64,000 nucleotides of DNA from Candidatus Gastranaerophilales bacterium (GTDB taxonomy: Bacteria > Cyanobacteriota > Vampirovibrionia > Gastranaerophilales > Gastranaerophilaceae). This document shows positions 54,051 to 56,953 of the stretch, piece by piece. Each line of letters begins with the position of its first letter. Position 1 is the stretch's first letter. Below the pieces are notes generated by a model, which was given only the letters and a program-made list of their open reading frames with translations, was not told where the DNA came from and searched no databases. A program made the translations under genes and the position numbers. Where the stretch lies: positions 2,020-66,019 of the forward strand of contig JAEEHV010000038.1 of the NCBI GenBank assembly GCA_016280955.1. Reading direction: 5' to 3'.

Positions 54051-54077
54051 TAAAGTTTTCTAAAAAACTGCCGATAA
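54051..54077 (+). promoter_or_regulatory. sigma28 (FliA) promoter, perfect consensus
   Basis: TAAAGTTT-N11-GCCGATAA, 26 nt upstream of ATG 54104. Confidence 0.85.
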
Positions 54078-54103
54078 TAATATAAAGATTTAATGGAGTA
54101 GTT

Positions 54104-56953
54104 ATGGATATTTCTCAGAACAGGTTTATCCCTTTTAATATTTTAAAACAAGTTAATCAACAGAATATCGCAAATGCAAAACCTGATGGTGAAAGTAATT
54201 CTGCAGAAAGTGTACAGAATAATAATACCGAAAATTTAATCCAAAAATCAGAAAAACAAAACAAGCTTTCTAACTGGCTTGATGAAGTTGAAAATTCTCT
54301 AAATACACAAACGCAAAATGCCGTGGATAAAAATAAAGAAACAGTTGTAGGAGAGGGTTCTTTTACAACTCAGGAAATTAAAGATTCAGGAATAGACAGT
54401 AAATATTTTATTCCGGTGTATTCAGGCTGGTACAGATTCAATCAGGATACAATAAAAGCTGATTTTCCGGGACAAAATATACAAACTCTGGCAGATTTGA
54501 AGGCTGCAATAGAAGGAATTGTAGGAAATGGCTCTTTTACCGCTCAGGAAATTAAAGATTCAGGAGTAGACAGTAAATATTTTATTCCGGTATATACAGA
54601 CTGGTACAGATTTAATCCGGATACAATAAAAGCTGATTTCCCGGGTAAAAATATTCAAACTCTGGCTGATTTGAAATTAGAAGTCGATAAATCAAATACG
54701 AATAAATTCTTATCAGAATTAAAAGAGTCACTTATTGAGCAAAAAGGGTATTCTGAGGATTATGCCAATATATTAATGAAATTTATAGAACAAAAAATTG
54801 ATTTTGGCAGTGAAAATTTTGACATAGAAAATGTAAAATATAATGTTATGGCTATGTTAAATGAATTAACCGGAAAAACCTCTTTACAGGGATATGACTG
54901 CAATCATGAACAACATGCATATAAAACAACAAGTATTTTAACGGAGGAATATACTTCATTAAGTCTTCAAAACGAATTTTTTGCATATATGATTAGTGAA
55001 TCCTGTAATCTTGAAAATGAGCAGGATAAAGCTTCGTTTATGAAAAAAATATTTATGGATGCCGGTGAAAAAATAGGCAAGTGGAACGGAACATATTTCA
55101 ACTGGGATACATTCTATGAAAATGACACGCATATAAAAATATCCGATTTAATTATGCTTGATGAAAATGGTGACGGCTCTTGGTTTAATGAATTTTATTC
55201 CATACTGAACTCAGATGCCGCTATTGTTAATAATAACTCTGACTATAAAGATGCAAAAAGTATAAATTCAGAGATGTTATTTAACGGAAAAGATACTCTC
55301 ACGGCAACAGATATTATTTATATGCTTGATTCTATGATGTTCAGCGAAGATAAAGGGATTGTAAAGCTCCGCTCAATGATTAATCAGGCGATTGAAAAAA
55401 TTGGTCTTACAAACTATTATGACACAGCAGAACTTGTCACCGATATAATAAAATTAATTAACGAAAAAGTTGATGGCAGCAAAAGTAAACAATTATCAAA
55501 AGAAACTGTTGAAAAACTAAATGATAATAATATTTTTGAAGTTTTGGAAAATATTATTAACAGTGATGATTTGATTAATGAATATTATTATGGAGTAGAT
55601 GACGAACTGGATATTTATGCAATGGATAAATATTCAGGCACCTGCTGGGCTGTCGGAGCAATAACCAGCTTGGCAGCATCTCCGATTGGTGTACAAATGA
55701 TAAAGGATGCCATGACGTTTAATGATGACGGAAGTGTAACCGTAACTTTCAAAGGTGCTGATAACAGATCATATACTATTACAAAAGAAGATATGGAAGT
55801 TGCTCAACAAAACCTTAATAAATATTCTCACGGTGACAAAACAATGTTAGTACTCCTTGCCGCAACCGAAAAGCTCAGAAAAGATATGAACCTACCGGCA
55901 GCTCAAGGATGGTTAAATGGCGGTTCGCAAAGAGATATGATATTTTGGCTGACAGGTAAAAACAATTTCATTTTAGACAGTGACGATTCGTTCAATGTAC
56001 TATATGATAAAATCTATGATGAACAGACTAACGAATATATAAAATTCTTATCACAAACTGAGTTTGGAGCAAATAATGGTCAATATTACATAAGAAAACA
56101 ACTTGAAAATATGGGGATAGATATATCTAGTACATATACTGCAGAAGAATTATTCAAAATAATGAAACCGGGATTATTATCCGGAGATGTTATTTTAAAT
56201 ATTGGTACCATAGGTGCTGATTTCATAATTCCAACCCAGCCAAACGGAGAACTTGCACATATTCGCTGGTTAGGCGGTGGTCATGCTTGGGGTGTCAAAA
56301 ATATAACAGAAGATACTGTAACTTTATGGGATTTGTATCAGCAAACAGAATATACGGTTTTATATGAAGACCTGCTTAACTCAGATTTTAGAATTGAATA
56401 TACAATCATAGGCGATTATGAGAATCCGAGTAAAGATATAGACTGGGTTTTGAGAGAACAAACTATGCGGGAGATTATTGACTTTGACAGTTCAAATATT
56501 TCCAGGGATAAAACCGGTATTAATGATATTGCCTGCCCGGGAACCTCAATGACTTTTGGTGAAATTATCAATTCATCACAAAGTATTCCGCTGAATTTTG
56601 AAGGTATATCACCAGATGGTGATTTTATGGGTGTGATAGAAAAAATTCAAAGCAAAGTTTTTCCCATTATAAAAACAATGTATACAAATATGACAGGTTA
56701 TACGGATTATAAAGCATTAAACAAGGCATACGAAGAAACGTGCAGTTATTTTAATGAAATAATTGTAGATTTTTGCAGAGATGAATATACAATGTTTAAG
56801 TTGAAGCAATATATAGAATACGGAAAGCATCCGACTGAGGCATTGATGGAGCTGGGTTTCAATATTGATGCTAACAGTATAGTTGAAAAATTCATGTCAT
56901 ATCTTAGCATGATCGAGGACAATGTATGCCAGAAGAAAAATTCTGTCGGATAG
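54104..56953 (+). CDS. large acidic protein with a papain/calpain-like cysteine protease domain
   Basis: SGTCWAVGAITSL and GGHAWGVKNI..DTVTLWD (Cys-His-Asp candidates); no signal peptide. Confidence 0.7.
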   Translation: MDISQNRFIPFNILKQVNQQNIANAKPDGESNSAESVQNNNTENLIQKSEKQNKLSNWLDEVENSLNTQTQNAVDKNKETVVGEGSFTTQEIKDSGIDSKYFIPVYSGWYRFNQDTIKADFPGQNIQTLADLKAAIEGIVGNGSFTAQEIKDSGVDSKYFIPVYTDWYRFNPDTIKADFPGKNIQTLADLKLEVDKSNTNKFLSELKESLIEQKGYSEDYANILMKFIEQKIDFGSENFDIENVKYNVMAMLNELTGKTSLQGYDCNHEQHAYKTTSILTEEYTSLSLQNEFFAYMISESCNLENEQDKASFMKKIFMDAGEKIGKWNGTYFNWDTFYENDTHIKISDLIMLDENGDGSWFNEFYSILNSDAAIVNNNSDYKDAKSINSEMLFNGKDTLTATDIIYMLDSMMFSEDKGIVKLRSMINQAIEKIGLTNYYDTAELVTDIIKLINEKVDGSKSKQLSKETVEKLNDNNIFEVLENIINSDDLINEYYYGVDDELDIYAMDKYSGTCWAVGAITSLAASPIGVQMIKDAMTFNDDGSVTVTFKGADNRSYTITKEDMEVAQQNLNKYSHGDKTMLVLLAATEKLRKDMNLPAAQGWLNGGSQRDMIFWLTGKNNFILDSDDSFNVLYDKIYDEQTNEYIKFLSQTEFGANNGQYYIRKQLENMGIDISSTYTAEELFKIMKPGLLSGDVILNIGTIGADFIIPTQPNGELAHIRWLGGGHAWGVKNITEDTVTLWDLYQQTEYTVLYEDLLNSDFRIEYTIIGDYENPSKDIDWVLREQTMREIIDFDSSNISRDKTGINDIACPGTSMTFGEIINSSQSIPLNFEGISPDGDFMGVIEKIQSKVFPIIKTMYTNMTGYTDYKALNKAYEETCSYFNEIIVDFCRDEYTMFKLKQYIEYGKHPTEALMELGFNIDANSIVEKFMSYLSMIEDNVCQKKNSVG
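54347..54674 (+). repeat. 174-bp (58-aa) tandem duplication
   Basis: Near-identical units starting at 54347 and 54521: GSFT.QEIKDSG.DSKYFIPVY..WYRFN.DTIKADFPG.NIQTLADLK. Confidence 0.95.

Follow-up and report, generated by a model that had tools for sequence, protein, structure and literature searches.

The 64,000-nucleotide window analysed here (positions 2,020 to 66,019 of contig JAEEHV010000038.1, called C53, of the 2.78-Mb, 93-contig Candidatus Gastranaerophilales assembly GCA_016280955.1, called G000) includes, at positions 54051-56953, a consensus promoter for the flagellar sigma factor sigma-28 (FliA) followed by an open reading frame (ORF) coding for a 949-amino acid protein, P0001. 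On the evidence of family profiles and structure models, P0001 is a divergent bacterial cysteine protease of the calpain superfamily (clan CA, family C2), and its sequence suggests that it is probably still catalytic, with the candidate triad Cys514-His727-Asp743. The calpain superfamily is known; what is new is a variant active site, together with new accessory domains, under flagellar late-gene control. The best explanation of the data as a whole, to which we give somewhat less than even chances, is a FliA-driven calpain-like protease that is exported through a flagellar-type channel. The coordinates of all features are collected in Table 1.

A divergent calpain-type protease

Searches with P0001 against Pfam, NCBIfam and the sequences of the Protein Data Bank (PDB) returned sub-threshold noise only (RXLR, MiiA motif), and those against PHROGs and PADLOC returned nothing useful. 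A BLAST search against the six-frame ORFs of G000 identified three paralogues that include the classical calpain motifs Q..GDCW, HA[FY] and NPW and show weak to threshold-level matches to Peptidase_C2 (PF00648), one of them with 24.3 bits against a gathering cut-off of 23.8. A profile search of 1.84 billion cluster representatives yielded 444 relatives at E ≤ 1e-3, and PF00648 was matched at E ≤ 1e-3 by 25 of 41 aligned relatives (best value 6.7e-9). When the profile of the family alignment was compared with the PDB, the chains retrieved were those of calpain-9, -8, -1, -2, -5 and -3; the best match, to calpain-9 (E = 3.2e-9), spans the Cys block as well as the His/Asn block. As the PF00648 hits sit in the relatives and none in P0001 itself, membership in the family rests on a chain of relatives.

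The structure models point to the same family. A full-length AlphaFold model, with a mean predicted local distance difference test score (pLDDT) of 73 (residues 190-770 confident) and a predicted template modelling score (pTM) of 0.61, matched the cores of calpain-3, -1, -5 and m-calpain in a Foldseek search of the PDB, with a probability of 1.00 over approximately 327 columns (TMt 0.45). With a model of the core only (295 amino acids, pLDDT 81, pTM 0.79) the best 28 matches were all calpain cores, with E-values down to 1.5e-4 and TM-scores up to 0.50. The confident matches of both models were calpain cores exclusively, and that of calpain-9 was also among the top matches. A preliminary description of this locus, made from the sequence, had considered the protein papain/calpain-like, with the fold expected at residues about 500-770, and not a structural flagellar protein. 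The core model is in agreement with such a fold, and the profile and fold evidence narrows the call specifically to a calpain (C2-like) type; no similarity to flagellar axial proteins was found.

The motifs quoted in that description are all present (DENGDG at residues 353-358, GTCW at 512-515, GHAW at 726-729 and LWD at 741-743). In a 41-sequence alignment there is little or no variation at G512, C514, W515, D578 and H727. Column 743 is mostly Asn; it is Asp in P0001 and three orthologues, as well as in seven otherwise classical relatives (P0007, P0024, P0031, P0037, P0042, P0056 and P0059). Because the N-to-D change recurs in several otherwise classical relatives, Asp743 is, as judged from the alignment, part of a variant triad and not the result of a loss. 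The family consensus preceding the Cys is QGxTGDCW, while P0001 reads MDKYSGTCW. In the clade of P0001 the position of the Gln is occupied by D, G/E or A/S, and this is the only clade in which the Gln is absent; the Asp preceding the Cys is also absent in this clade only (SG[TAN]CW). The idea that an Asp takes the place of the oxyanion Gln holds in part: D508 does occupy position −6 from the Cys, but the MAFFT alignment puts the Gln column at M507, beside a one-residue indel, and there the Gln is simply absent. Since two defining residues, the triad Asn and the oxyanion Gln, are missing from its sequence, P0001 is not filed as a strict C2 member.

Clan CA enzymes tolerate the loss of the oxyanion Gln, at reduced rates, and this property, the invariance of Cys514, His727 and Asp743 among orthologues with 36-38% overall identity and the alternation of N and D at the third triad position in otherwise classical members all argue against a calpain fold that has degenerated to serve in binding or scaffolding, or against another Cys-His-Asp chemistry (transglutaminase, deamidase or acyltransferase). 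We consider such a function very improbable, even though it would agree with a clade in which the oxyanion Gln and the Asp preceding the Cys are both missing and Asp replaces Asn, and with weaker structural matches that include CtaG, an amide-forming Cys-His-Asp enzyme; non-peptidases are also common among calpain homologues (337 of 3795; PMC4631099).

Domain organization of P0001

Four orthologues begin with MD[IL][SG], and this common beginning fixes the start of P0001. The protein is acidic (149 D/E versus 85 K/R), and N, Q and S account for 20%, 11% and 9% of residues 1-80, respectively. Neither a hydrophobic signal-like stretch nor a membrane-helix-like segment was found in P0001 (maximum KD19 1.55), so that composition and hydropathy bear out an N/Q/S-rich N-terminus without a signal peptide, as first described. 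Within the disordered region (residues 1-190) just the tip MD[IL][SG] and a WLD motif (residues 58-60) are conserved, and the identity to orthologues is 28-40% for residues 1-25 and 14-27% for residues 26-190. This region also includes a tandem duplication with the 58-amino acid unit GSFT.QEIKDSG.DSKYFIPVY..WYRFN.DTIKADFPG.NIQTLADLK. The duplication is not found in the orthologues and no further copy was found in G000; judging from its sequence it is a recent event.

The disordered region is followed by an all-helical domain (residues about 191-480) with 37-42% identity to the orthologues, for which no confident structural or Pfam match was obtained. Of 150 family representatives approximately 30 have this domain, and in each of them it precedes the protease core. 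The core itself carries a helical insert predicted with lower confidence (residues about 620-695), and the C-terminal domain (residues about 800-941), with 22-31% identity to orthologues, has no known match.

The helical domain includes the loop DENGDGSWFNEF, previously described as EF-hand-like. Compared with the canonical loop D-x-[DNS]-x-[DNS]-G-x-[ILV]-x-x-x-E, it is canonical at positions 1, 3, 5 and 6, but position 8 is Trp and the Glu is found at 11, not 12. Residues N355, G356, D357, W360 and E363 are invariant among the orthologues and the helix-loop-helix is predicted with a pLDDT above 90, which supports the earlier view; on the other hand, Glu 12 is missing and the EF-hand models of Pfam did not match P0001. 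The model is consistent with a putative Ca2+ site, which is located outside the protease core.

The promoter and the sigma-28 regulon

The sequence TAAAGTTT-N11-GCCGATAA is found exactly at 54051-54077, 27 nt 5′ of the ATG at 54104, and is the single match within the window even when 2 mismatches are allowed (shuffle mean 0.08). Transcription is predicted from the position of this promoter to start near 54084-54086. Upstream of it there is a perfect reversed HLR1 box, presumed from its sequence to be a site for an OmpR/RpaB-type regulator, and an overlapping palindrome, GTTACATTAATGTAAC, contributes a third GTTACA half-site. The exact promoter and the perfect HLR1 repeat of the preliminary description were thus both confirmed, the former at a level beyond chance. 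Sigma-70-like promoters were discarded as a signal, as their number (25) is not enriched over that in shuffles (22.7). No terminator was found at the end of the gene, and a convergent ORF ends 2 nt away.

With 233 bits the FliA protein of G000 exceeds the curated cut-off of 189.6, and the genome includes 11 exact copies of TAAAGTTT-N11-GCCGATAA, compared with approximately 0.004 expected from base composition. A looser form, TAAAG-N13-15-GCCGATA, is present at 36 sites, which yield a single tight consensus, yTAAAGTTTTt..AAAa..TGCCGATAw, and lie mostly 6-140 nt before start codons (three are farther). The motif precedes the genes for FliD (FliD_N and FliD_C; L014) and flagellin (Flagellin_N and Flagellin_C; L027). 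Because fliD and the flagellin gene carry the motif and the consensus is tight, it can be considered the working FliA promoter of this organism, of which 54051-54077 is a consensus member.

A reversed HLR1-like box (TGTAAx-N4-TGTAAx) is located within 80 nt 5′ of 20 of the 36 promoters. In 17 of them, including those of fliD, the 949-amino acid gene and the 894-amino acid paralogue, the distance is 16-17 nt, and in others it is 27-28 or 39 nt. Both large calpain-like paralogues have promoters of this HLR1-linked class. Since the spacing recurs in promoters of G000, the HLR1 box of the 949-amino acid gene is part of a regulon-wide composite architecture. We also observed that many sigma-28 promoters include a conserved 'aTGTAAag' element approximately 8-14 nt 3′ of the −10 element, near the predicted transcription start, that resembles a reversed HLR1 half-site; the corresponding sequence in the window, at 54080-54088, is ATATAAAGA.

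Most sigma-28-driven ORFs of G000 have no Pfam match, FliD and flagellin being the only recognisable ones. Those without a match include very large proteins of 6279, 3752, 1502 and 1242 amino acids (C11:4607-23446, C66:17507-28765, C58:86856-91364 and C36:94364-98092, respectively; the Pfam scan covered the first 4500 residues of the 6279-residue protein). Exact TAAAGTTT-N11-GCCGATA sites number 26 in G000, 9-10 in two congeners (G119 and G150) and 0-5 in other genera, and the sigma-28 regulon may be expanded in G000. At 2.78 Mb this assembly is approximately 0.7-0.9 Mb larger than those of its congeners, and its estimated contamination is 3.5%.

Relatives of the gene and their promoters

A word-indexed homologue search identified two relatives with approximately 40% identity to P0001, and an exhaustive profile search added P0005. 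All three genes have the promoter: P0002 (locus L013) is preceded by TAAAGTTT-N12-GCCGATAT, P0003 (L034) by TAAAGTTT-N11-GCCGATAT, and P0005 (L035) by an HLR1 box and then TAAAGTTT-N11-GCCGTTAT. At L013 and L034 the orthologue and fliD are adjacent and divergently oriented; fliD is served by a separate sigma-28 promoter, with an HLR1 box 15-16 nt away. The next-closest relatives are P0006, P0009 and P0008, which have the N-terminal helical domain in common. The promoter of P0006 (L070) leads first to a 93-amino acid ORF and, 12 nt further on, to a 1568-amino acid relative (L070:4643-9707); upstream of P0009 (L071) there are an HLR1 box and TAAAGTTATTCAAAAAAATGCCGATA; and the gene for P0008 has no sigma-28 motif but adjoins a flagellin gene. 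Altogether a sigma-28-type promoter is found in 6 of 7 close family members, compared with approximately 1.6% of genes in the background. The assignment of the 949-amino acid gene to sigma-28 is therefore backed by both the genome regulon and the conservation of the promoter in relatives.

The 93-amino acid ORF of L070 has no Pfam match; a chaperone is possible, which is a hint only. The other neighbours are a gene for a MIF-like protein on the opposite strand in G000, a gene for a YhdP-like protein at both L013 and L034, and a PilZ gene in L035. A toxin-immunity pair was ruled out, as no small downstream gene is conserved. The record that includes L013 (CAMORE010000008.1) is titled 'uncultured Acinetobacter sp.', and its gene order and sequences match L034. 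Because L034 shares 70-95% identity with G000 in neighbouring genes, this label looks, from the sequences, like a mislabel.

Evolution and distribution

The gene evolves faster than its surroundings. Between the genome of L034, a close relative, and G000, HPF is 95%, the YhdP-like protein 76% and FliD 70% identical, while the identity of the P0001 homologue is approximately 38%; overall P0001 shows 38-40% identity to an orthologue from a genome with 70-95% identity in the neighbouring genes. Synteny is not conserved: the P0001 gene is absent from both the fliD flank and the YhdP flank of G000. Some calpain-like gene is present in 38 of the 151 genomes of the order that were sampled (17 of 44 genera), and a full-length orthologue of P0001 was found in none of these 151. 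By these sequence comparisons the P0001 gene behaves as an accessory, fast-evolving gene.

Export apparatus and location of the protein

G000 includes two complete-looking export-gate sets, with FlhA encoded on C77 and C81, FliP on C6 and C81, and FlhB twice on C6. The flhA gene on C81 is located in a fliF-x-fliH-flhA block, and an injectisome was ruled out as the source of this second FlhA, since its neighbours are FliF and FliH. A 'B' type FlhA (about 720-736 bits, in the fliF-x-fliH-flhA block) is present in 151 of 151 sampled genomes of the order, and an 'A' type (about 860-890 bits) in some of them only. All 10 of 10 B-only genomes lack flagellin, and FliA was above the cut-off in all 16 genomes tested, B-only ones included. 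The pattern of FlhA types and flagellin fits the literature on Gastranaerophilales. A phyletic link between calpains and flagella was discarded, because with a FHIPEP gene in 151 of 151 genomes presence and absence are uninformative, and the persistence of a large FliA regulon without flagella was not supported (0-3 strict sites per aflagellate genome). The two gate sets, the universal B-type FlhA, the retention of FliA without flagellin and a regulon of mostly domain-less large proteins are the basis of a wider reading, which we find distinctly unlikely, in which P0001 would be one cargo of a FliA-timed programme and the flagellar type III machine would have been repurposed as a general effector exporter, independently of the injectisome.

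A Sec-like N-region was found in none of 149 Met-starting family representatives, and one of them has a membrane-helix-like segment. In the N-termini of the family Asn is enriched 2-fold and short Phe motifs are found in 50%, compared with 21% in the background; for the sigma-28-driven ORFs of G000 these motifs amount to 34% versus 11%. The N-terminal motif patterns were chosen after the data had been seen and serve as leads only. Locus L058 (G110:C6) includes a 573-amino acid calpain-like ORF on the minus strand that starts with MKVNPIQVAMPFRG.

Export by a route other than Sec is made plausible by the late-flagellar promoter, the adjacency to fliD in relatives and the disordered N-terminus with a conserved tip, as well as by the acidity, the putative Ca2+ loop, the accessory-gene behaviour and the Sec-less family. 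Flagellar-type export of P0001 in particular, which the preliminary description had also proposed, is a tentative proposal, whose probability we place at or a little under that of the explanation as a whole. In such a process the FliA RNA polymerase would transcribe the gene from its consensus promoter, assisted by an RpaB/OmpR-type regulator at the fixed-distance HLR1 box, so that P0001 would be made in the same phase as FliD, flagellin and about 30 proteins without annotation, when late substrates pass through the flagellar-type export apparatus. Export through the flagellar-type type III channel would be directed by the conserved tip and the disordered N-terminus to which it belongs. Outside the cell Ca2+, bound at the DxNGD loop and/or the protease core, could activate the enzyme, which might then cleave host or mucus proteins, cleave surface proteins of other cells, or process itself.

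The support for export is circumstantial, and the same facts fit a wholly cytoplasmic family. P0001 could be a cytoplasmic regulatory protease, made together with the late flagellar genes, that remains in the cell and trims or degrades regulators, components of chemotaxis or the motor, or further products of the regulon, in the manner of the limited proteolysis by eukaryotic calpains; we regard this as rather unlikely. The lack of a Sec signal or membrane helix in P0001 and of Sec-like signals in the 149 representatives is just as compatible with an intracellular family. Proteins that stay in the cytoplasm are also part of sigma-28 regulons in model bacteria, and co-regulation is consequently no proof of export. 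What does not suit a core regulator is the fast evolution of the gene (38-40% versus 70-95% for its neighbours), the hypervariable disordered N-terminal region of approximately 190 amino acids with its recent duplication, and a patchy distribution (38 of 151 genomes) with changes of locus; the putative Ca2+ loop and the acidity would also be better suited to a Ca2+-rich extracellular setting. Eukaryotic calpains, on the other hand, are cytoplasmic (PMC4631099).

This location of eukaryotic calpains and the non-exported members of other sigma-28 regulons weigh against an exported, FliA-driven calpain-like protease, and so do several results of our own. P0001 lies below all Pfam thresholds, with no PF00648 match at E ≤ 1, and its TM-scores to calpain are only 0.45-0.50, moderate values that are explained by the helical insert (620-695) and the relative orientation of the subdomains. 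With the oxyanion Gln and the Asp preceding the Cys both lost, catalysis could be weaker or of a changed kind. Among 20 calpain-like genes from other genera of the order merely 6 have a sigma-28-like motif, located 12-45 nt before a possible start, and aflagellate relatives have just the 0-3 strict sites mentioned above. Finally, the surroundings of the P0001 gene yielded neither a gene for a chaperone nor a known export motif.

Export or surface display by a non-flagellar route (type I with a TolC-like protein, or a pathway that recognizes an N-terminal tag), with sigma-28 providing the timing only, is quite improbable in our judgement. P0001 lacks RTX or GGxGxD repeats at its C-terminus and matches no Pfam model, its N-terminus, MDISQNRFIPFN, fits an F-x-G tag poorly, and there is no dedicated transporter near the gene, although G000 does encode a TolC-like OEP protein, and the start of the L058 relative and the enrichment of Phe motifs in the N-termini of the family would agree with such a route. 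Flagellar-type export remains the account that we prefer, at the strength stated above.

Table 1. Location of the features described in the text. Plain numbers are positions in the window; contig-prefixed coordinates refer to assembly G000.
Feature	Location	Strand	Remarks
Palindrome GTTACATTAATGTAAC, 16 bp, perfect	54008..54023	.	sequence reading
Perfect reversed HLR1 box TTTACAAT-GT-GTTACATT (direct repeat)	54016..54033	-	17 nt gap to −35 element
Sigma-28 (FliA) −35 element TAAAGTTT	54051..54058	+	motif search
Sigma-28 −10 element GCCGATAA	54070..54077	+	11 nt 3′ of −35 element
Shine-Dalgarno GGAG	54095..54098	+	5 nt 5′ of ATG
Coding sequence of P0001, 949 aa	54104..56953	+	stop TAG 56951-56953
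Disordered N-terminal region, residues 1-190	54104..54673	+	pLDDT mostly <50
Tandem duplication, 174-nt unit (58 aa)	54345..54675	+	1.9 copies, 89% identical
All-helical conserved domain, residues about 191-480	54674..55543	+	pLDDT mostly 80-96
Loop DENGDGSWFNEF, residues 353-364, putative Ca2+ site	55160..55195	+	DxNGDxxW; between helices 346-352 and 361-377
Calpain-type protease core, residues about 481-772	55544..56419	+	43-53% identity to orthologues
Cys514 codon, candidate nucleophile	55643..55645	+	in SGTCW; invariant in A3 and A4, nearly so in A2
His727 codon, candidate general base	56282..56284	+	in GGGHAWGV; conserved
Asp743 codon	56330..56332	+	in TLWDLY; at calpain Asn (NPW) position
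C-terminal helical domain, residues about 800-941	56501..56926	+	pLDDT about 80-90
Paralogue, 894 aa	C58:72447-75131		HLR1 box and sigma-28 promoter
Paralogue, 888 aa	C35:about 200-2900	-	near-consensus sigma-28 site GCCGTAAA; N-terminal EF-hand, Thr-rich repeats
Paralogue, 458 aa	C58:about 30850-32220		no sigma-28 site; PF00648 just above cut-off
Export-gate gene loci	C77:29896-31887, C81:36023-37999, C81:22391-22969, C6:55421-58211, C6:2104-3129		

Comparison with known systems

The calpain family (MEROPS C2, PF00648), which includes Tpr of Porphyromonas gingivalis, has the same two-subdomain core (PC1 and PC2), the same order of Cys and His and motifs comparable to those of P0001 (G.CW, HA[WFY] and then N/D). 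P0001 differs by the Asp in place of the triad Asn, by the lack of the oxyanion Gln and of the GD preceding the Cys, and by a helical insert of approximately 75 residues between the subdomains. It has none of the calpain III, C2 and penta-EF-hand domains, and its N-terminal helical domain (approximately 290 residues) and its C-terminal domain are annotated nowhere. A Cys-His-Asp triad without the oxyanion Gln makes P0001 a natural test case for calpain catalysis. Bacterial calpain homologues have been described as rare and patchy, with varied extra domains and without the calpain Ca2+ sites, and as of 2015 biochemistry was available for Tpr alone (PMC4631099). The present data add a sizeable bacterial calpain family whose close members are linked by their promoters to the sigma factor of the late flagellar genes.

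The hexadecamer and the spacing of the promoter are identical to those of the enteric FliA class-3 promoters, TAAAGTTT-N11-GCCGATAA; the Bacillus sigma-D promoter is TAAA-N15-GCCGATAT. What distinguishes the promoters of G000 from the known class-3 promoters is that about half of them have, at a fixed distance of 16-17 nt, a reversed HLR1 box of the RpaB type, and the regulon differs from known FliA regulons in that it consists mostly of proteins without a Pfam match, including those of 3752 and 6279 amino acids. P0001 is, beside FliD and flagellin, one of the few members with a predictable activity that can be assayed.

The injectisome effectors YopT and AvrPphB (C58) are also papain-like proteins with a Cys-His-Asp triad and Sec-less delivery; the parallel is conceptual only, as C58 is not C2-like, neither a sequence nor a fold match with P0001 was observed, and G000 shows no injectisome, the FliF and FliH contexts being of the flagellar type. 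YplA of Yersinia enterocolitica is a sigma-28-dependent non-flagellar protein exported by the flagellar type III system. As far as the literature found goes, calpain-type proteases have not been reported as a flagellar-exported class, and if P0001 is exported it would represent a new enzyme class among the few non-flagellar cargoes of flagellar type III systems, and would offer a first biochemical approach to the way in which uncultured gut Melainabacteria affect their environment. The Cia, FspA and Fed proteins of Campylobacter jejuni, which are likewise sigma-28-dependent non-flagellar cargoes of the flagellar system, have, like P0001, a late flagellar promoter, no Sec signal and a presumed N-terminal export signal (PMC2764114, PMC5223770). 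Compared with these proteins and YplA, P0001 is a 949-amino acid calpain-type protease, a putative cargo known from its sequence, and its host is an uncultured gut bacterium and not a known pathogen.

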